Positions 1,956 to 64,000 of a DNA stretch of 64,000 bases are shown in pieces. The notes beneath the pieces were generated by a model. That model saw only the letters and a list, made by a program, of their open reading frames with translations. It was not told the DNA's origin and ran no database searches. The first letter of the stretch is position 1. Each line of letters begins with the position of its first letter. Origin of the DNA: Raja brachyura (taxonomy: Eukaryota); the NCBI GenBank assembly GCA_963514005.1, contig OY740796.1:36208001-36272000 (forward strand), written 5' to 3'. The position numbers and the translations under genes are program-made.

Positions 1956-3726
1956 CAGTACAAGTACTTTTACATACATTATGATAAAAGGTGGCTGTTT
2001 AAAGTAAGAGTTGTGTAAACGTTTGACAGACCAGACTACTAATAAAACACAAACATGTTTTTCTATTGGGAAGGAGTGACAGACAGTTCCATTATACGCT
2101 GCCTGCCTTAATGAAAGTTGTTCTTGAATCAAACCTGACAAATCACTTGATTAAATCAACATGTTCTGAACTTCAGCCACAGCTTATTATTCCGCTCTCA
2201 TATTTTGTACATTAATCAGAGTTCTTCACAGTGGACTCTCAGCCACAGACTGTACATTTGAGGCACGGTCACCAAGAGGCAAGATTGTGTTCATTATATG
2301 GACCACTGCAACAAGCTATGTGGTATGAATGCATTGTTTATATCCTTCTTAATATTTCTCTAAGTGTTCTGTGATTACTGCTTTTCTCAAGAGGCAAGAA
2401 CCAACATAATTCCATTAAGAAAGTCTATATTTTTGAAGTATATTTATTCATTATAATAAATGCTAGCCTCCACAGCAATTTGTTGCTTTGTCACAATAGC
2501 AGTAACTAGCATTTCCGAAAAGAGTGCATACATATAGATTGAAATCCCACATTAGGCTTTTACAAAAGTTGGGCAGTGGTAGAGATGCATGAAATGGCCA
2601 CATATCTAGAATGTTGTGTTATCTTCGCTATTTCACATCTGCCAGTGGCCAAATCCAGAGCCTGGAGTTCAGCACAATTTGTGCTTAAAGAACCTAATTC
2701 ACCCATATTTGATCATGGGATTCTCAATCATATCTCATAACAATGTTTAAATTACCTCCTAGCCTGAAGAATTTCTGCTTGAATGTTTGCTACCAACGTT
2801 GCCATTGAACTTTATTACCGAGAGTGGCACTTAACTCCGGCCTGGGGAAGAGTTGCTTTACACGATTCAGGAAGATCATTTAAATTGGATATATATATAA
2901 TGAAACGTTAGCAGGCAATCAGTGGAATATTTATGTGTTGAAGGGAGAAACAGAATTAAGACTACCATGAGGCTTGTATATAGTTCAAATAGCAGCTATG
3001 GGTATCTCATGGGTGCTCAGTGTGGGTGGTAGTGTGCAATAACACAACAAAATAGATAAGCACATAACAAAAACAGTTTTAACGGGGAAATCTGTTTTAT
3101 GGGAAAATTTAACTTTCGTAATCATAGTGATAAGGAAAAGTACCTTGCATCACAAAAATAGCAACCACCATGAGTGTTTTCAAGTTAGTATTCTGCAATG
3201 ATGGGGGGGGGGTTGTTGAGACATAATAAATGTAGTACTAAGTGTGAGCCAGTTTTAAAATGCAGTTTAAGGCTGCATGAACACAATGACCAAAATACTA
3301 TTGCCTTTAATGCAATTTAAAATAAGTTGGATCCTAATACAACAGCCCAGACTTTGCAAATGTGGTAGAGAGAGATTGACACTGACAAATTCTTTTGAAT
3401 AACACTGCCCTTTACTACTTGAATCAAAATGCATTTTGTTGTGATGATGTGGGTCTTTCAACTGAATCATACTGGAGAGGAAATTAACGTTCTGAGGCCT
3501 GGTTACACACCTTTTTCCTGCTAAGATCCTGCAAGGGATCATATCAGTCTTCAGATTGAGGGAGGAAAGAAATGGGTGACATGCCTCTAATGCATTTCGT
3601 TGTCTCTGTACTGTACACTGACAATGATAATTAAAATTGAATCTGAATCTGAATCTTAGATCAGACATTCTCCATTCTAAGGCTATGTAGTCCAACTCAC
3701 TGCTAGAACTTGTTACTGTCACTTTT

Positions 3727-3985
3727 AGTTGTGAATTTAGATTAGACACAACATGGAAACAGGCCTTTCAGCTCACTGCGTACAGGCCGACCATCAATCA
3801 CCTGTTTATACTAATCTTATGTATCCCACTTTCTCATCCATTGCTTGCAAATTACGCGCAATTTTACAGAGGCCAATTAACCAACAAAACACAAGTCGTT
3901 AGGATGTGGGAGAAAACCAGAACACCCAGGGGAAACTCAGGCGGTCTCAGGGATACTGTGCAAAGTAAACACTATCAGCACCCAA
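3727..3985 (-). mobile_element. V-SINE (HE1-like) with CR1-type tail
   Basis: Reverse complement carries the tgggtgttctggttttctcccacatcc V-domain-like block and a gggcctgtttcc-type tail, as in the 38292 copy. Confidence 0.7.
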
Positions 3986-5139
3986 TTCAACACTATTCAG
4001 ATTTAGTTTATTATTAAAGTAATTTACTTCTGATTTATTATTTCCAGCCATAATGAAATACTTATAACTGGAAAAACTCTCATTCCTGGCATTATCAATA
4101 ACATCTTACTGCTTTCCCACAGTGTCTTAGACATCTCGAGCAAAGTAAGGTAATCATGAAAGTTAACATTAAACAATCACATTATTATTCAAGACTCATT
4201 TAAAATTGGGCATGTTCATTTTTTTTTCCTGGAGCACATCAACAATTGATAGGAATTTGTCATTTGTTTTGGTGTCAAAAACATAGATCAATGTATTAAG
4301 CTGCCATATAGCCATTACAATTTATGACAAATTCATTAATAATGTTTAAATGGCAATTAAAATGCATTATTTCTGTACAGCTGACTATTGTGTTGACTCG
4401 TTATTCAGATTGCATACTGTTGGGTAAAATACTGTTTATAAAACCCAATTACAACATACAATTTATTCAATAGAGGCACAAAGCGATGCAGAACGGAAAC
4501 AAATCTTTAGACCCAATTTGTCAAAGTTGGCCAAGTTGCCTAACTGAACTAGTCTCATGGTTGCCCATATTCTTCCAAACCTTTCCATGTACCTGCTAAA
4601 GTGTCATTTAAATGTTGTAATTGTAACCACCTCTACCACTTTCTCCGGCAGCTCATTCCAAGTATGCAATACCCAGTGTGGAAAAATTGCCCCTCGGGTC
4701 CCTGTTGAATCTTTTCCCTCTCAAATGCAGAGACTTCACATTACAACTACTACTTTGTGGTCAGGAGATAGAGTGCTGAATTGTGATTAGCTGCTTTCAG
4801 GCGTGGTGAAAGCCTCAGTAAGTGAACAACCGCCCCATCCCATATAATCCAATTTGCTCATGTCAATCTAACCACTAAGTGGTACTGGCATAACCACACG
4901 TGTACTGGAAGCAGTTGACCAAACAGTCCAGAGTGGACAATGTAACACATCATCCACGTAACATTCAGAAAGCATTGAGAGCTAAAGAAGAGCTAAAGTA
5001 CGTAATGTAAATGAAACCTTACATTAAAAAATGAGTTGATTCAATTATTGCTTATGTGGAGCTGGATAAATGATTGTAAGATCTGGAGCTCGTTTGGAAG
5101 TGCTAGTTTATGATAAATGAGACTGAGCACAATGCAATT

Positions 5140-7159: not shown

Positions 7160-8885
7160 ATATGATAGGAGCAGAATTAAGCCATTTGTCCCATCAAGTC
7201 TACTCCACCATTCAATCATGGCTGATCTAGCTCTCCCTCCTACCCCATTTTCCTGCCTTCTGCCCATAACCTCTGACTCGTATTAATCAAAAATCCATAC
7301 CTCTGCCTTAAATATATCCACTGACGGCCTCTACAGCCTTCTATGGCAAAGAATTCCACAGATTCACTATCTCTGATTAAATAAATTCCTCCTCATCTCC
7401 TTCATAAAAGAATGTCCTTTAATTCTGAGGTCATGACCTCAAGTCCTAGACTCTTCCACTAGTGGAAACATCCTCTCCACATCCACTCTATCCAAGCCTT
7501 TCATTATTCTGTAAATATCAATGAGGTCCCCTCTCATTCTTCTAAACTCCAGTGAATACAGGCCCAGTGCCATCAAACGCTCACCATATGTTAACCTACT
7601 CAATCCTAGGATCATTCTTATAAACCTCCTCTGAACCCTCTCCAGAGCCAGCACATGCTTCCTCAGATATGGTGCCCAAAATTGCTCACAATATTCCAAA
7701 TGCGGCCTGACCAGCACCTTATAGTAGCAATGTTACAAAATTTGGAGATTTTAAAAATCAAGTCTGCAATTTATTCCATCAGATAAAGCATAAAAAGAAG
7801 TTTAATTTGACACCTAATTCACTTTCATATCTTCAGTATTAAGAAAGTTATGACCATGTTCATACTTGGAAATTAGCATCTTGTTCCCCATTGCCTTTCA
7901 ATTGACTTAACTCAAAAGCTGTGATCTAGAACAGTTAAAAGCCCATAACTTTCTTAAAAATTAAGAGAACTCAATGAAATTTTCAGTTATTATAGATTGA
8001 AGCATTCTGAAACAAATATGAAACAATCTTACTCAGATGACCTGAAATTAAAGCATATAATTGGTTAGTTATCTAATTGTAGCTAATTACAAAATTCAAT
8101 GAGTAGATCTAAACATCTATCCATTTCTTAAGAAAAGATAAACTTTTTTTTAATTGCCTAAGTGTCGAATTGCCGAATTGCATAAATAATATTCACATAA
8201 TAATCCACAACATAACATAATTTTAAAATCTAATTTTCATGAATTTATAGGCCAAATGGAAGGAATTTAGTGTTTAATGCCTGTAAATTAATGGCCATTT
8301 AAATCAACTAGCGAGTGGGTTTTAGTGGAATGCGGTGGATTGGAACGTTGCGGTATGCGGTGAAGTCAGTATGAAAAATACAGCCGGTTCATACATTTTT
8401 TTGTCCCCTTTTCGCAACATGAAAATGTGATTAAAGCCTTCCCAAAAAACCAAGTTTTTATGTAAAAATAAACTGTGTAGCTTCTTTTATCGCCTACCTT
8501 AGGTCCGTTCCACTGTCACCATTCAGAGCTTTAGAAGATGATTTTTAAACTACTCTAGTTAATAAATAATCTAGTGTAGTTTAAAAATACCTTTATGAAT
8601 AAAATGTCGGAGCGATTTCTCTTTAGCGACGAAATCGCCCGACATGGATCGACTTGGACTGCCTAGAAAAAAGTCGGCATTTTAAACACGCCCCCCTCTG
8701 AAAGGCGCCAAAATCGCGCACACGGGGAGCGGCAGAACTGCAGCGCTGCTAAAGGTAGGTATTGTAACATACCTACTTATAGAGCCTCAGCATTACATCC
8801 CTGTTTTTGTACACAAGCTCTCGAAATAAATACTAGCATTGCATTTGCTTTCTTTACTACCGATTCGACTTGCAGGTTAACTTTT
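7160..8885 (-). mobile_element. CR1 LINE 3' fragment interrupted at 7725-8775 by a DNA transposon
   Basis: ORF 7439-7717 LVRPHLEYCEQFWAPYLRK...LEFRRMRGDLI; CR1 sequence resumes at 8776 (cttatagagcctcagcattacatcc). Confidence 0.9.
7725..8775 (-). mobile_element. Non-autonomous TIR DNA transposon, copy 1 (1051 bp, TAG..CTA ends, 7-bp TSD)
   Basis: TIRs TAGCAATGTTACAA / TTGTAACATACCTA; TSD cttatag at 7718-7724 and 8776-8782; homologous in reverse orientation to 61300-62853. Confidence 0.9.
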
Positions 8886-22376: not shown

Positions 22377-22709
22377 NNNNNNNNNNNNNNNNNNNNNNNN
22401 NNNNNNNNNNNNNNNNNNNNNNNNNNNNNNNNNNNNNNNNNNNNNNNNNNNNNNNNNNNNNNNNNNNNNNNNNNNNNNNNNNNNNNNNNNNNNNNNNNNN
22501 NNNNNNNNNNNNNNNNNNNNNNNNNNNNNNNNNNNNNNNNNNNNNNNNNNNNNNNNNNNNNNNNNNNNNNNNNNNNNNNNNNNNNNNNNNNNNNNNNNNN
22601 NNNNNNNNNNNNNNNNNNNNNNNNNNNNNNNNNNNNNNNNNNNNNNNNNNNNNNNNNNNNNNNNNNNNNNNNNNNNNNNNNNNNNNNNNNNNNNNNNNNN
22701 NNNNNNNNN
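22377..22709. other. Assembly gap (333 N)
   Basis: Run of n. Confidence 1.
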
Positions 22710-39275: not shown

Positions 39276-39479
39276 TAATTCAGCCTCACTTAGTTATTCC
39301 TTTATTGCTCTTTGTATTTTTTTGTACTTGTTTACTCTGTGAGATTCGTACAAACTAATAACTTCATTAGGTGCAATGAAGTTACTAGTTTGTACGAAGT
39401 TCACAGAGTAAACAACTTACAATAAGTACAAAAAATATACCAAAGAGCAATAAAGGAATAACTAAATGAGGCTGAGTTA
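39276..39479. repeat. Near-perfect palindrome of about 200 bp (MITE-like)
   Basis: taattcagcctcacttagttattcctttattgctc...aacttcatt-aggtgc-aatgaagtt...gagcaataaaggaataactaaatgaggctgagtta. Confidence 0.85.
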
Positions 39480-41131
39480 CAGTGCCCTCCATATTGTTTG
39501 GGACAAAAACCCATCATTTATTTATTTGCCTCTGTACTCCACAATTTGTGATTTGTAATAGAAAAAAATCACATGTGGCTAAAGTGCACGTTGTCTGATT
39601 TGAATAAAGGCCATTTTTATACGTTTTGGTTTCACCTTGTAGAAATTACCGCAGTGTTTATACAGTCCCCCCATTTCAGGGCACCATAATGTTTGGGACA
39701 CATGGCTTCCCAGGCGTTTATAACTGCTTAGGTGTGTTTAATTGCCTCCTTCATGCAGGTATAAGAGTATCAGCACCAAGTCTTTCCTCCAGTCTTTCCA
39801 TCACCTTTGGAAATGTGTCTTGCTGTTTATCAGCATGAGGATCAAAGTTGTGCCAAAGTTGAGTCAAAGATGTCATTATAAGACTGAGAAACAAGAATAA
39901 AACTGTTACAGACATCAGCCAAACCTTAAGCTTATCGAAATCAACTGTTTGGAACACCATTAAGAAGAAAGAGAGCACTGGTAAGCTTACTAATGGCAAA
40001 GAGACTGGCAGGCCAAGGAAGACCTCCACAGCTGATGACAGAATTTTTTTCTCTATAATAAAGAAAAAAAACCAAACACCTGTCTGCCAGATCAGAAACA
40101 CTCTTCAGGAGTCAGGTGTGGATTTGTCAATGGCCACTGTCCGCAGAAGACTTCATGAACAGAAATACAGAGGCTACACTGCAAGATGCGAATCACTGGT
40201 AAGCCGCAAAAATAGGACGGCTGGGTTACAGTTTGCCGAGAAGTACTGCTTGGAATCAGTACAAAGAGCAACCTGAGTTCTAGAAAAAGGTCTTGTGGAC
40301 TGATGAGATGAAGATTAACTTATATCAGAGTGATGGCAAGAGCAAAGTATGGAGGAGAGAAGGAACTGCCCAAGATCCAAAGCATACCTCCTCATCTGTG
40401 AAACACGGTGGTGGGGGTGTTATGGCCTGGGCATGGATTGCTGCTGAAGGTACTGGCTCACTATCTTCATTGATGATACAACTGCTGATGGTAGTAGCAT
40501 AATGAATTCTGAAGTGTACAGACACATCCTATCTGTTCAAGTTCAAATAAATGCCTGAAAACTCATTGCTGTTCATTCTGCAGCAAGACAATGTTCTCAA
40601 AAACACTGCTAAAGCAACAAAGGAGTTTTTCAAATCTAAACAATGGATAATTCTTGAGTGGCCAAGTCAATCACCCGATCAGAACCCAACTGAGCATGCC
40701 TTTTATATGCTGAGGAGAAAACTGAAGGGGACGAGCCCCCCAAAACAAGCATAAGCTAAAGATGGCTGCAATACAGACATGGCAGAATATAATCAAAGAC
40801 ACCCATCAACTGGTGATGAACATGAATCACAGACTTCAAGCAGTCATTGCATGCAAAGAATATGCAACAAAATACTAAACATGACTGCTTTCATAACATG
40901 ACACTGCTGTGTCCCAAACAATATGGTGCCCTGAAATGGGGAGACTATGTATAAACACTGCTGTAATTTCTACAGGGTGAAACCAAAATGTATAAGCATG
41001 GCCTTTATTAAAATCTGACAATGTGCACTTGAACCACATGTGATTTTTCCTATTACAAATCTCAAATTGTGGAGCACAGAGGTAAATAAATAAATGATGG
41101 GCATTTGTCCCAAAGATTATGGAGGGCACTG
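39480..41131 (+). mobile_element. Full-length but inactivated Tc1 (DD34E, IR/DR type) transposon
   Basis: TA|CAGTGCCCTCCATA...TATGGAGGGCACTG|TA; TIRs of about 220 bp with inner direct repeats (39677-39700, 40910-40933); transposase remnants WTDEMKI, VKHGGGGVMAW, QQDN-34aa-E (WPSQSPDQNPTE) broken by frameshifts and stops. Confidence 0.96.
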
Positions 41132-42217
41132 TAGTTATACACCTCAGGTGCATATGAAAAGAAACTGATCTGTACTCCTAAGAGGGCATGGGCATGGTGG
41201 TCTTTGTTAACAAGGTTTGTTGAAGGTTCACTGCCTCATCTTACCAGTGATTCGCATCTTGCAGTGTAGCCTCTGTATTTCTGTTCATGAAGTCTTCTGC
41301 GGACAGTGGCCATTGACAAATCCACACCTGACTCCTGGAGAGTGTTTCTGATCTGTCAGACAGGTGTTTGGGTTTTTTTCAATTTGCAAGGTTCACTGCC
41401 TCATCTTCTGATCTGTCGCTCAGATTTCAAAGATAATTTTTTCGTACAGCTTCCAATTATTTAATGAGGCAAGAATTGAGGAAGCAGTTTCTTTTTTGGA
41501 TTGTTTGAGAATGGCTTTTGGCATAATTTCCATGATGGTGCATCACTCTCGCTGAAGGAAGCTGACAAGATCAACAAACCTGAAGTGTGGTCACTTAATT
41601 CAATACAGATGCCATGATTACAAACACTACAGCCATGCAATCTATGTGCCATATTTTATTGGAAGTAGACTTTGTAGTCTGTTCGTTCAAATTTTCCAAT
41701 ACACTTAAACAAAATATTAGTGGATTAAGCCACTGAAATCTACACCATCATAGCAAATCTTCTTCACAGTTGTTACCATAACAACATTTGAAAGACATTT
41801 GGACAGGTACATGGATAGGAAAGGTTTAGAAGGATATGGGCCAAAACACAGGCAGGTGGGACTGGTGTAGATGGGGCATCTTGGTCGGCATGGGCATGTT
41901 GAGCTGAAGGGCCTGTTTCCATGCTGTCTGGCTTTGACTCTCTAATCATATTTTTAGAGGAAGATGCCCATGGTGAAAAATTTGCATTACGCCATTGATC
42001 GCTTCAAAAAAAACCTGTGAAGCATATGGCTATAAATCACTGTTCCAACAAATGTTCCTATTAATGATTATTCATTAGAATTATAATAGAATCTCAGATT
42101 CTCATCATGTTTAAGCAATTTGGTGCACGTCTTTTCATCCTCAGTACGTCATCTTCAGCATAATTATTTGTCATTTTCCCATATTCACTGCATAAGGGTT
42201 AATCTAAGAACAGAGTT

Positions 42218-55609: not shown

Positions 55610-56465
55610 ATGTGCGGACAGGACGTCAAAGGACAAAGCTAAGAAGCCGAGACCAAGATGCCGAACGTACATTACGCTGAAAAGCCAAGATACTGAATGG
55701 ACATTATGCCGAAAGGACACGAAGCCGAAAGGATACAAAGCCAAACGGACACGATGCCGAATGGACAAGACGCCGAATGGACATGACGTCATAAAGCAAT
55801 GACATCGAAACGGGCATGGCGCCGAACGGACATGACGTCTCCTGGGACAGGATTGGTCCGACACCTTGTCGTTTATCGACAAAGGTTAGCGATTGGTCCA
55901 GATCCCTGCTTCCATCACATCACTGGCCGGGGGGGGGGGGACGGGAGGGTGGGGGGGAGCTTGAACTTGCGTTAGTAAAATGGTGGCAGTGACTCCAAGC
56001 TGTTGCAATTGCCACAGAGGCAGTGGTGTGATGGACGCGGGGGTCTGGACCAATCGCTGACCTTTATCAATAACTGACAAGGTGTCAGACCAATCCCGTC
56101 CCCGGATGTGTACAAGGTACAACAATTTAACTATTTTGAAATGTAACAATGTACAACAATTATTGCAGCAAAGATAGATGTTTTAAAAGTGTTTCATACC
56201 TATTTATCATTTCGGCTTCATGTCCGTTCGGTGTCATACATTTTCTACCATGTCTGTTCGACGTAATTTCCTATCAGCGTCGTGTCCTTTCGGTGCCATG
56301 TCCGTTTGGCTTCGTGCCCTTTCGGCGCCAAGTTCGTTTGGCTTCGTGTCCTTTTGGTGTCGTGTCCGTTCGGCATCTCGGCTTTTCGACGTGATGTCCG
56401 TTTGGCATCTTGGCTTCGGCTTCTTGGCTTCAACTTCTCGTCTTTCAGCGTCCCGTCCAGGTACC
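55610..56465. mobile_element. Mutator/Foldback-like MITE with tandem-repeat TIRs and 9-bp TSD
   Basis: Left arm of about 16-bp units (gccgaa.ggacacga.) mirrored by right-arm units (tcgtgtcc.ttcggc); flanks caaatagac 55601-55609 / caaatcgac 56466-56474. Confidence 0.75.
55840..56106. mobile_element. Second small MITE (TIRs of about 88 bp) nested inside the fold-back element
   Basis: gggacaggattggtccgacaccttgtc...ccatcacatcactg (55841-55928) is the reverse complement of 56019-56105. Confidence 0.7.
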
Positions 56466-59848: not shown

Positions 59849-61299
59849 CAGTATTTAATGATAATCTGGTAGACCTGGTGAAGAATTAAACTCAAAATGT
59901 TAAACCATCTTGTCTTTTTCACATACTGACAACCTGCTTGACAGCTTATCATTCATCCTTTAGATTCTACATATCAGAATTATTTTTCCTGGAAATTCAG
60001 GTGCTCTAGAATAATACACTTTTTTTTTTTCATGGATGCAGTCAGCCCAATAATCACTCAACTATGTGCATTTATTAATTTTATTTTTCAATTCATCGAG
60101 CAGTGAAATTATTCTTTGACCTTGCAGAACAAATGTAGGATCATGTAAAGGCTGAGGTTTTATTAAAAGCCACTGATTTAGTGATTCAGAAAACTCTTTG
60201 TGTGTCAATGCCTTGGGGTGAATTAGTCAGAGAACAGCCTTATGTTGTGTCATCTATTCAGTTATCCATGCTGTAATATAAAATGCACCTTTATCTTACA
60301 AAGAAAGAGTGAGGAAAATGACTGTACAGTACCGTGTCAACAATTCAAATGCAAATATCAGGTGCCGCATTTGTCTGTAACCCTTTAGTTGGCTAAACGG
60401 TTTTCTTTTGCACTTTGCTTTCACAAAAGTGACATCTTCATTTAGTTTTGAGTGCAAAGCTGTTGGGACTACACAAATTTCACAATGTATTTAGTTCACA
60501 GGAGAGCAATAAAATAGCGTACACATGTTGCATACTTTTGTAATGCAATACGTGTCTCACATATACAGGTGCTCTGAAACAAATATTCAATAATTGAGTT
60601 ATCTGTGAGGTCTATGTTCAGAGTGGATGCATAGTTTATTCATGAGGAACTTTAATATTTAAAATATTGATAGGAACGCTGATGACATAACCTGGATCTT
60701 GCAAAGATCTAGACTCAGCTAGGAGGTAGAGATACCAGTCTTTTTCGGATAATGTTTACTTGTCTCTTACAAAATCTGCAAATGTGCAGTTGCACCTGAA
60801 ACTGGGGGGAAATTTATCTGTGATGTAGATGAAGAATTAGGATTACCAGGTCAATTAAGTAAGTTTTAAGGAATATCTTAAAAGATAAATGTAAGGAAGA
60901 GGCACAGAGGATCTTATGGGAAAGAATGCCATGTTTGCATCAGACACAATTATCAATCGTGAATGATTAAAATTGAGGTTGGTAATAATCAACTTTGGAT
61001 AGCTGCAGAGATTTCAGGGGCAGCAGCATGACAGCAATTTAGATTACAAGAATAAGGGAGAAGCAAGACAAGGATGGATCTAAAAACAAAAGTCAAAACA
61101 GTTAATAATTTAGACACCGTTCAAAAATATGCCAATACATATACTCAACACTGCTGTGATGGATCAACGTAGTAAGTTAGAATAAGGACAACATGAATTT
61201 GTTCAGCTTAAGTTTATGAAGGATAAAAGATGGGAGTCAAGGTGAGAATACATTGGGACGGTCATATTTAGAGATGTAATCCCAAACAGTGGCTATATT

Positions 61300-62853
61300 T
61301 AGCGATGTTACAAAACTTACCTTCAGCGGCGCTGCAGTTCTGCCACTGGCCGTGTGCACGACTTTGGCGCCTTTGAGGGGGGGGGGGGGGGGGGGCGGGA
61401 TTAAAATCCAGTTTTCTACCGCCTGTCCGAGGCGGATTTCCTCGGGCTGCTAGCTGATGCAGAAAAATTGTTCCGACTTCCATTCCCAATTTTTTTTTTT
61501 TAATCACAAGACAATTTCTTAATTATATTAAAATAAAAAGCGACTTCTAACGCCGTCAATGCCTACAACGTGACGGATCTCAAGTACGGGATAAAACACG
61601 GTGTAAGTCGTCTATTTTACATATAAACCTGTTTCTTGGGATGACTTTAATCAATCTTCTATAAGCGAAAATGTGATTTGGGCTCCATATGAACCAGCAG
61701 TATTTTTCCTGCCGATATGGGGTTCAAATTCACCGCAAATGCAACGTTCCAATCGAATGCGTTCCAGAAGCAAGATGATTAAAATGCCCATTTTTTTTGG
61801 AGATAAGCCATCTAAATTGTCTATATTTTGCCTTATTCTCTCTCCCCATGATCATTATTTTTAAACTAAATATTAACAACAGTTTGTGTCACATGTATTG
61901 TGCAAAAAACAATAATTTGATTATATTTTGGGTGGATGTTTCTAGATTAATTTATGGGAATTAAACATTAAATTCCTTCCATCTGGGATATAAATTCATG
62001 ACAGTGAGATTTAAAAATCATGTTATATTGTGAAATCTTGTGTGAATGGGATTAGTTTGTTATTTGGATACTTAGGCTATTAAATAAAATTATCTTTTTC
62101 TTGAGAAATGGAATCTACAGGACATTGTTAATGGGAAAGTAGTGGGCAGAAAGGCATGTCATGTGTGGTTTGAAGAGCAAAAACGTGTAGTTTACAATAC
62201 CAAAATTGAAAAGTTGAGGAAAAACAAGGTGTACAGAGTTGCTTATTGGTTACAATCTGAGGAGTATGATGATGCTACTGATTATGATATGCCAATGTAC
62301 CAGCTAGCAACTGATCTTCTTCATAAAGACTTGGTCTATTGCTAGAAATTGTAATTTATTTACCTATCTGTTAAGGATTTGCATCATATAATACAATAAT
62401 ATTAAAGTTCTGATCTTGAGAATATCGCATTTTTGAATTTTCAAGGCAGTCTGGGTGTTTATTACTATTTCTGTCACAACGGTAAATTTTGTGATTAACT
62501 ACAATTAGGTAATTAACTAATTATATGCTTTAATTTCAGGTCATCCAAGTAAGATGTTTTATATTTGTTTCAGAATGCTTCAATCTATAATAACTGAAAG
62601 ATTCATTCAGTTCTCTTGATTTTTAAGAAAGTCATGGGCTTTTGACTGTCCTCGATAACAGCTTTTGTGTTCAGTCAATGGAAAAGCAATTTCTAGAAGA
62701 TGCTAATTTCCGACTATGTAAATGGCCATAACTTTTTTAATACTGAAGTTATATAGATGTGGATTAGGTGTGAAATTAAACTTTTTATGCTTTATCTGAT
62801 GGCATAAATTGCAGACTTGATTTTTTAAAGCTCAAAATTTTGTAACACTGCTA
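61300..62853 (+). mobile_element. TIR DNA transposon, copy 2 (1554 bp, TAG..CTA ends, 7-bp TSD) in a BSN intron
   Basis: TIRs TAGCGATGTTACAAAA / TTTTGTAACACTGCTA; TSD ctatatt at 61293-61299 and 62854-62860; homologous to 7725-8775. Confidence 0.92.
62121..62345 (+). pseudogene. Coding remnant inside the transposon; Spin/Ssty (Spindlin Tudor)-like C-terminal domain
   Basis: Open frame DIVNGKVVGRKACHVWFEEQKRVVYNTKIEKLRKNKVYRVAYWLQSEEYDDATDYDMPMYQLATDLLHKDLVYC*; similarity judged by eye only. Confidence 0.5.
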
Positions 62854-64000
62854 CTATATTCCAACCACAGGAAGGCACAAACACGTTTTAAATGAATAAA
62901 TAAATTAATTATTAATACTATAGCAATAAATATTTTTGAAATTAGCTTATTTGAGGTTAGGGGTAAGATTAGTTGTTGTAAAGGTAAATTCAGAATAGCA
63001 AATTCTATTGTGTAGGTTGCTCAAAAGATTTCCAACATGAAATGAAAACTTAGGTATTCAAGTATTCACAACATTCACAAAATGAGGAGCTGGGGGGAAA
63101 AAGAGCAACATCTTTTATCAGAGAGCTAAATTACTTGGAAAAGAGAGGAAGACATAAGCTTGATTCAATACCTTATTTGTTTGAATGGATAGTATTATGT
63201 GACTGGTCATACATTGGGATTCTGGTGAACAAATGTAAATCCCACACAGACCTACTCAGTCGTGGCAAACATGCATTGGTAGCACCAAATTTCTTAAGAA
63301 TTATGAAAAATGGTAAACAATTATTCTTTTTACTAAATAACTTATGATGGGGAAAAGTCAGATAATTTAACCCTGGATTAACCATCCCACACCATAAGGT
63401 CATGAATGTAAGTTCACAGCATATTGCAACATGGATCAAACACAGCACAATCTGCGAAGAAGTTTGCACAGTCTTTGAATATCATGTAATAGCATCACTT
63501 TCTTTACACCTCCTAGTCTCCAATAGCTTGCTTCATTAAATACAATTCTGATTAGCAACAATAGTTTATATATCCCATTGACACTGAATCCCAAGACGTT
63601 GAAGCATCCTGCTGAGATTGCATTTAACATGGAAAATGATACATATGTTGGAGGCATCGTGGAGTAGAGTATCTTGTGCATTCAGACGTGGGGAATGGAG
63701 CTTTCATAATTATCATCTGAACCACCTTTTCTCCTGAAGGTGTTAAAAATAGCTGCTCCACGTGGAAAACCTTGCAGTGTGATACTTTCATTCATATGTA
63801 CAATAGTCTGAGGTGACTGAATTCTGACTTAGTAATCAATGCTCTGACATGCCTCAGCATAATTATTTGCAAATATAATGGGTGACCTTTTTCTTGGTGC
63901 ACAAAAAAGTACCAACCTTTTTTACATTTTAGGCAGATAGCCATAACATTTTCATGCCAAGTACAACCATCAAATAACTTATGCTATATACTTTGCACAG

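Follow-up and report, generated by a model that had tools for sequence, protein, structure and literature searches.

A hAT deletion copy in Raja brachyura with a neutrally decaying Spindlin-like remnant, the coding tail of a transposase whose terminal domain likely binds methylated histone tails

The question raised by this locus is why a short DNA transposon should carry a piece of what looks like a histone reader. The window analysed here is a whole stretch of 64,000 nucleotides from the 2.7-Gb genome of Raja brachyura (contig OY740796.1, G000:C16:36208001-36272000), and the element lies at window positions 61300-62853. An earlier note, made from the letters alone, had described it as a transposon with terminal inverted repeats (TIRs) containing a segment that is absent from a sister copy and resembles the second Spin/Ssty repeat of Spindlin1. 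The element is presented below as a deletion copy of a hAT transposon with a neutral Spindlin-like remnant. On balance we consider it likely, from sequence comparison and predicted structure, that the corresponding domain of the intact enzyme binds a methylated histone tail and so tethers the transposition complex to nucleosomes. The features on which the description is based are as follows.

61293-61299: target-site duplication, left copy, CTATATT, an exact 7-bp match to the right copy
61300-61315, forward strand: left TIR, TAGCGATGTTACAAAA
61300-62853, forward strand: non-autonomous deletion derivative of a 4.26-kb hAT-type DNA transposon, recognised by its TIRs, 7-bp duplication and alignment with the parent
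62105-62115, forward strand: deletion junction, where parent position 638 (approximately) is fused to position 3520, with a short GAT-like microhomology at the join
62121-62345, forward strand: final 74 codons of the transposase gene with its stop, a Spin/Ssty-like Tudor domain, equal to residues 905-978 of the protein P0154
62346-62484, forward strand: 3' flank of the transposase gene, which the sister copy also lacks
62838-62853, reverse strand: right TIR, TTTTGTAACACTGCTA
62854-62860: target-site duplication, right copy, CTATATT, an exact 7-bp match to the left copy
7725-8775, reverse strand: sister derivative without coding sequence, parent 1-666 fused to 3893-4262, with the 7-bp duplication CTTATAG

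The element is a genuine DNA transposon copy of 1554 bp. Its 16-bp TIRs are complementary at 14 of 16 positions and, together with the exact 7-bp duplication, they bear out the description of a TIR element. The segment missing from the sister copy is real, but it extends over 62113-62484 (about 370 bp) and not over 62113-62450 (about 350 bp) as had been noted. The sister lacks about 120 bp more, near 61830-61945. The stop-free frame spans 62088-62345 and reads as it had been quoted, except that one spacer has 12 residues and not 11. The segment is not a single-copy unrelated insertion, the possibility that had been named as speaking against its significance: a search of the genome with the remnant peptide gave 2637 first-look candidates, and the 150 that were scored all match at 88-100% identity.

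The autonomous parent that had been supposed exists in the same genome as 4.26-kb elements with a 978-residue open reading frame (ORF). A large protein collection searched with the remnant peptide contained two relatives, one of which has 486 amino acid residues and ends in the same domain; the catalytic part of this protein led to the parent. The catalytic region has 125 matches in the genome, and 11 elements were retrieved from the top 14 of them, picked for long open frames. All 11 are bounded by the family TIRs and by exact 7-bp duplications; the length of nine is 4249-4301 bp, and four (L053, L055, L056 and L057) contain an unbroken ORF ending in the Spin/Ssty-like domain. P0154 is the protein of L053, 978 residues counted from the first ATG. 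The mean pairwise distance is 1.9% among the autonomous copies and 6.6% among the short copies. Over all loci, the target duplication is an exact 7-bp repeat in 32 of 47 end pairs, has at most one mismatch in 40 of 47 and is an exact 8-bp repeat in none (49 pairs were listed, two without a left flank were dropped, and a few rows pair the ends of nested copies). The target site of the family leans to C-W-W-W-W-W-G.

Three deletion derivatives of this parent recur in the genome. The sister type has lost all coding DNA, and it transposes without the domain. The longer type (parent 1-860 joined to 3456-4262) retains the ATG, out of frame with the domain. The window type is broken 8 bp upstream of the domain, so that the start codon and about 900 codons are gone and the first in-frame ATG is found only at codon 57 of the remnant. 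The "extra segment" of the window type has thus been kept from the parent and was not inserted. It had been proposed as the C-terminus of a transposase or of an accessory protein; it is collinear with the end of the transposase ORF, and the accessory gene falls away. Insertion of a host Spindlin fragment into the element was also considered and is rejected by this collinearity and by an identity of only 16-19% to Spindlin. The 3' 741 bp of the window copy match the L053 element at its positions 3520-4262 with 89% identity, while the similarity of the 5' half is patchy (69-86%). To judge from these alignments, the parent of the window type would therefore be a sister subfamily or a recombinant, distinct from the retrieved L053 type; the exact parent was not found among the retrieved elements.

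The summed contig depth in one public sequencing run is about 800,000-1,400,000 at the element ends, 70,000-84,000 across the domain and only some 900 in the core, which suggests, by what is a poor measure, that coding-free copies dominate the family. The family is dense in this genome: one family copy was found in 1 of 20 control stretches, and at four loci (L059, L078, L098 and L007) family copies adjoin or nest in one another. One autonomous copy (L063, G000:C8:22748000-22757500) is 5091 bp long through an insertion near the domain, and its flank contains long open frames which we take to be retrovirus-like. Sequence nearly identical to L053:4700-6146 is present in sequencing runs of ten organisms from 12 studies, so related species have the family too. 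At L053:3180-3212 (G000:C8), a pyrimidine-rich tract ending in ACAG stands directly 5' of the ATG. This hints at an intron within the 5' untranslated region, with a putative acceptor-like site; no GT..AG joint for this site was found in contigs of four public runs (three of them presumed to be RNA), and no RNA run was present among the listed runs matching the element.

Selection on the remnant was assessed in 30 loci chosen by their non-coding 3' flank, 28 of which hold the domain. Frameshifting indels are found in 12 of the 28, stops in five, and either of these in 13. The uncorrected ratio of nonsynonymous to synonymous changes (pN/pS) is 0.71 (p 0.045). When an omega-like ratio is corrected for the mutation spectrum, private changes give 0.81 (p 0.31) and all changes together 0.98 (p 0.93). 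Copies ranked by protein score give an omega-like ratio of 0.33, a value brought about by the ranking. The remnant in the window-type copies decays neutrally; selection keeping it in short copies is rejected by the indels and stops and by corrected ratios near 1. In the window copy the remnant is likely untranslated, as there is no in-frame ATG before codon 57, and the copy as a whole is an ordinary dead derivative resembling a miniature inverted-repeat transposable element. The autonomous copies give 1.15 for private changes (p 0.47, neutral), 0.66 for all changes (p 0.0004, constrained) and, for the domain alone, 0.46 on 21 changes (p 0.09). By these sequence counts, the pattern is the one expected of an active DNA transposon. 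Conservation of the frame among family members is therefore found among autonomous relatives but not among the non-autonomous copies.

The full-length structure of P0154 was modelled with AlphaFold from a 52-row alignment, with a mean predicted local distance difference test score (pLDDT) of 82.8. The model consists of an N-terminal helical domain (residues 18-108), a disordered linker, a coiled coil (198-341), a catalytic core (420-822) and a 58-residue helix (825-882), followed by the terminal barrel. In Foldseek, Hermes is the top match (E 1.4e-6) and the P element enzyme the second (1.6e-4). In VIA, Hermes reaches Z 17.0 at 4.2 Å rmsd (root-mean-square deviation) over 345 aligned residues, and the runner-up Z 10.2. 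The residues D429, D506, C531, H534, W670 and E784, which form the D-D-E triad, the C-x2-H motif and a Trp, are nearly invariant in the relatives; in the ungapped rows of the 52-row alignment the counts are 38/39 and 44/44 for the two Asp, 44/44 for Cys, 45/45 for His and 44/46 for Glu. Pfam and PDB sequence searches with the full-length transposases gave no match beyond coiled coils, and no Pfam hAT match. A BED zinc finger at the N-terminus is common, though not universal, in hAT transposases. P0154 has no C-x2-C pair and so no BED finger motif. Its residues 18-108, confidently modelled and without a Pfam match, sit where that finger would be and are a candidate end-binding domain. By fold and motifs, the parent is a hAT transposon of the 7-bp duplication type; this duplication length excludes the canonical Ac/Buster type and not the hAT superfamily.

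At E 0.001, 1384 representative proteins match the transposase. Those with a name belong to a crinoid, to a nemertean and to molluscs of the genera Aplysia, Nucella, Patella and Liolophura; a chiton protein (XP_064605117.1) shares 53% identity with P0154 along its whole length, and 64% within the domain. The nearest Atlas clusters are unannotated and mostly molluscan. A quick tree built on the final 520 residues from 25 proteins groups P0154 with one unnamed protein and a chiton protein, at a Shimodaira-Hasegawa-like approximate likelihood ratio (SH-aLRT) support of 99. Among 150 relatives listed, 68 carry the terminal domain, once each and none twice, within 5 residues of the C-terminus in 58; it is present in 64 of the 67 listed relatives that extend at least 110 residues beyond the catalytic Glu. 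Identity is 28-64% in the domain, as against 30-63% in the insertion domain. An alignment of 50 rows was made from the window peptide and 49 of 62 domains; of the 13 left out, six were truncated or degenerate, and practical grounds excluded the other seven.

The likeness of this domain to Spin/Ssty repeats was assessed by profile and by structure. When the domain profile was compared with 177,635 PDB sequences, the top 17 of 22 hits were Spindlins (E 1.8e-4 to 5.2e-3, values helped by the repeated domains of Spindlins), and the next hit was at E 0.38. Repeats 1 and 2 of the host Spindlins score 11.5-17.2 bits with this profile, above all 500 shuffles of each, and repeat 3 gives no score. HHalign pairs the domain with Spindlin at 90% (E 1.6e-6). 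The AlphaFold model of the domain (pLDDT 96) has Spindlin1 as its top Foldseek match, and in a second look with VIA the top 24 rows are Spindlins, aligned on repeat 2, the best at Z 8.7 with an rmsd of 1.8 Å over 64 residues. Below them are RDM15 (7.5) and Tn7 TnsB (7.1), and the SMN and TDRD3 Tudors at Z of about 5. Because the sequence profile and the predicted fold agree, the domain is almost certainly related to the Spin/Ssty repeat, although it falls below the Pfam cut-off. The Spin/Ssty-like domain seen by the earlier note is thus upheld, by profile as well as by the structural comparison that it had suggested; the 62121-62345 peptide by itself has no Pfam match, and it is the family profile that finds Spindlins in PDB. 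The best match of the window peptide in the ESM Atlas is 0.85, to phage hypotheticals. The genome had no match to the profile of Pfam PF21743, the PTM/DIR17-type Tudor, in a search whose controls likewise had none. Word-index searches with the domain profile gave 8 and 2 proteins, none pointing to another architecture; long proteins crowded these searches, which show no exclusivity.

The H3K4me3 cage of Spindlin1 is formed by F141, W151, Y170 and Y177; D184 binds H3 R2, with a loss of about 90-fold on mutation, D189 and E142 bind the A1 amine, and repeat 1 holds the R8me2a pocket (PMC3967050). The residue numbering was verified on PDB 7e9m. The counterparts of F141, W151 and Y170 are W16, Y25 and Y42 of the remnant, which are aromatic in 50, 49 and 50 of the 50 rows, all three together in 49, as the earlier suggestion of cage-equivalent aromatics would have it. 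The counterparts of D184 and D189 are D65 and D70, with an acid at each in 49 of the 50 rows. The fourth cage position would be Y55, which is aromatic in 42 of 50 and Phe in P0154, and the four cage positions and two acids are all kept in 41 of 50. In P0154 these residues are W920, Y929, Y946, F/Y959, D969 and D974. In the closing motif that had been compared with Spindlin, L-x-x-D-x4-D-L is conserved, but the word MYQL is not, its Tyr being aromatic in only 21 of 50. Spindlin repeats 1 and 3 do not have the D-x4-D spacing, so it is not needed for the fold. There is a good probability, from the alignment and the model together, that the domain binds methylated lysine or arginine. That H3K4me2/3 would be the mark is a serious possibility, which we place slightly below an even chance.

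The proposed mechanism is the following. The transposase would bind the TIRs and cut in the manner of Hermes. W920, Y929, Y946 and probably F/Y959 would form a methyl-lysine cage, and D969 and D974 would hold the H3 N-terminus as D184 and D189 of Spindlin1 do, which would point to methylated H3K4. The reader at the end of the long helix could then tether the transposition complex to marked nucleosomes, and several subunits might add avidity. A reader in this position suits nucleosome tethering, as with the chromodomains of some Gypsy integrases (bioRxiv 10.1101/2021.11.30.470311). The short copies would be moved in trans, and the coding tail would be carried along in them because it is adjacent to the right end. 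That this steers insertion is a more tentative proposal, which we place below an even chance.

Several observations weigh against this reading. Concerning the fold, the Foldseek match to Spindlin1 has an E-value of 0.03 and none reaches 0.001. In a wide VIA search the RDM15 Tudor (Z 7.5) ties with Spindlin-4 (Z 7.1), in a range that is called common, and the SH3-like barrel of Tn7 TnsB also reaches Z 7.1 on the domain model. Concerning the sequence, the domain profile ranks Spindlin repeat 1 above repeat 2; Pfam Spin-Ssty gives a weak match in 2 of 50 members (best E 0.09, below cut-off), while PF21743 matches six of 50 (best E 2.5e-6); and the window peptide, as a single sequence, has no match in Pfam, Spin-Ssty included, or in PDB. 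Leaving out the six truncated or degenerate domains raises the conservation counts of the 50-row alignment. In the pocket, the counterpart of Y177 depends on the register: it is Y55 by strand pattern (strand 53-58, helix 59-67) and the variable P58 by HHalign. E142 has no conserved counterpart. Finally, masked flanks of 20 short and 11 autonomous copies were compared with 20 control stretches about 1 Mb away. In this weak test (20 copies, old insertions, and islands that by the rule used are often repeats), CpG-island-like windows show no excess (short 11/20, autonomous 7/11, control 12/20), and the observed/expected CpG is 0.46 for short and 0.49 for autonomous flanks against 0.49 for controls (p 0.52 and 0.79).

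Other explanations of the domain should be considered. It is unlikely that the barrel, as a module of Spin/Ssty fold, serves to bind DNA or to assemble the transposase oligomer and is not a methyl reader. SH3-type barrels occur in retroviral integrases, and residues 1-57 of TnsB align with the domain at Z 7.1 and an rmsd of 2.0; the loop between strands 2 and 3 is rich in Lys and Arg in most members, and the flank test is without target preference. However, the highest conservation is found in the cage aromatics and the two acids and not in the basic loop, and below E 0.3 the sequence profile finds Spindlins only.

It is distinctly unlikely that the domain reads marks to find or protect donor copies, occupying H3K4me3/K9me3 on young copies in competition with a silencing-recruiting host Spindlin1. 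In support of such a role, mouse Spindlin1 marks young LINE1 copies on which H3K4me3 and H3K9me3 are present, and recruits SPOCD1 (PMC11499256). The host genome has two three-repeat Spindlin genes, and the missing target bias in the flanks is compatible with this role. However, the domain is a single repeat without the second pocket, and it is nearly universal in the relatives, some of which are from molluscs, a crinoid and a nemertean. To our knowledge, the Spindlin1-SPOCD1 pathway is not known in those animals.

The link between the transposase domain and the vertebrate Spindlins, which had been raised as a possibility, is one of common ancestry of the domain, without a direction of descent. 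The further proposal that an animal-wide hAT lineage reads methylated H3K4 with the Spindlin1 repeat-2 pocket, and that vertebrate Spindlins arose by capture and triplication of the transposase domain, is improbable; the origin of the Spin/Ssty repeat was not found addressed in the literature searched. If the capture did occur, a host factor now used to silence young transposons would derive from the targeting module of a transposon itself. The two host Spindlin genes (L046-L051; G000:C3:66.37 Mb and C32:32.81 Mb) have three repeats each, as fits a vertebrate, and keep the repeat-2 cage and acids. A further locus (L052, G000:C9:36435292-36435411) has a weak Spin-Ssty match of 29.5 bits with an internal stop, and gives no score with the transposase-domain profile.

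Many Tudor domains bind methylated non-histone partners, and cages of four aromatics also bind methyl-arginine. A partner of this kind, for example methyl-arginine on PIWI or Sm proteins, would suit the four-aromatic cage and the profile, which scores Spindlin repeat 1, that of the R8me2a pocket, highest; it is very improbable nevertheless, as it is repeat 2 that the fold and both acids resemble, and the SMN and TDRD3 Tudors reach only Z of about 5. Least probable, and largely refuted, is the expression of a stand-alone reader or decoy by the short copies: the break only 8 bp before the domain, the thousands of candidate copies, the ratio of 0.33 and the uncorrected 0.71 on DNA-ranked copies would favour it, but the window type has no start codon and the ATG of the longer type is out of frame, 12 of 28 copies are frameshifted and 13 broken, the corrected ratios are 0.81 and 0.98, the 0.33 is a product of the search ranking, and the coding-free sister transposes without the domain.

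The window has other features besides this element. A remnant at 39470-41380, which we take to be Tc1/mariner-like, has long ends inverted to each other (39478-39664 and 40948-41133); just outside it, at 41240-41380, lies an inverted repeat (98%) of a 141-bp piece from its interior (40063-40203). The sequence at 55636-56430, with long inverted arms of 16-bp tandem units, is probably another non-autonomous DNA transposon. A run of N at 22377-22709 is followed by a GC-rich stretch to 23270, open in several frames, which may be a promoter or a first exon.

In the literature searched, the scope of which stops short of Repbase Reports, subscription papers and the supplements of the bioRxiv survey (a table of 823 fusions), neither a Tudor nor a Spin/Ssty domain was found on a DNA transposase; the passages of PMC5753468 contain nothing on such an enzyme. 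In a 2025 paper a Gypsy element is given as the first case of a Tudor domain reported in a transposon (PMC12477816). The vertebrate host, the young and unbroken copies, the series of derivatives and the test for neutrality are new here. If methyl reading by the intact enzyme is correct, a fixed reader of Spindlin type in a cut-and-paste lineage would give a direct case, open to test, of DNA transposons whose target choice is guided by chromatin. The young, unbroken vertebrate copies of this genome (1.9% mean pairwise distance) offer a substrate for binding and insertion-mapping work and may serve as a natural model for the steering of transposon vectors, and the transposase domain is a non-host relative of the Spin/Ssty repeat.

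The known systems compare with this protein as follows. Spindlin1 repeat 2 (PF02513; PDB 4mzg, 4h75, 7e9m) shares with the transposase domain the fold, the G-x-x-x-x-H-x-aromatic start, the three cage aromatics and the equivalents of D184 and D189. The two differ in that the identity is 17-19%, E142 is not kept, and the transposase domain has about 9 extra residues after strand 3 and is fused to the enzyme as a single copy, while the Spindlin proteins (SPIN1-4, Ssty) are stand-alone, with three tandem repeats. The Arabidopsis RDM15 Tudor (PDB 7de9), to be seen together with the PTM/DIR17-like family PF21743, is also a single C-terminal Tudor with the same three cage aromatics (Z 7.5). It is a reader of H3K4me1, in which a Trp-Tyr-Tyr cage is accompanied by Asp643 and Asp645 that select monomethyl-lysine (PMC8184781). 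These two Asp directly follow the third aromatic, whereas the transposase domain has a conserved Trp and a longer loop there.

The structures of Hermes and other hAT enzymes (PDB 8edg, 6dwz, 2bw3, 4d1q) have, like P0154, an RNase H-like core that a large helical insertion interrupts, the D-D-E triad, the C-x2-H motif and the conserved Trp, and short TIRs starting with TAG. The P0154 family differs in its 7-bp duplications in place of the canonical 8 bp, in the absence of a BED finger and in an identity of only 10%, and it adds the N-terminal helical domain, the long coiled coil, the C-terminal stalk and the Tudor barrel. Repbase holds families of hAT type whose annotation gives 7-bp duplications (PMC4455052), and the label hAT-hATw exists (PMC12905397). 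These families resemble P0154 in hAT fold, duplication length and marine invertebrate relatives, a comparison made through literature passages; those passages do not mention a Tudor domain. We take the 7-bp families to be those called "hATw", whose agreement with the P0154 family is in duplication length only. A reader domain also ends the integrating enzyme in chromodomain Gypsy elements, in Gypsy-10_Ec32 of Ectocarpus (a C-terminal Tudor) and in the hAT-Chromo of Ephydatia (PMC12477816; bioRxiv 10.1101/2021.11.30.470311). Those are retrotransposons or local fusions, whereas in the lineage of P0154 a Spin/Ssty-type Tudor domain is fixed in cut-and-paste transposases across animal phyla.
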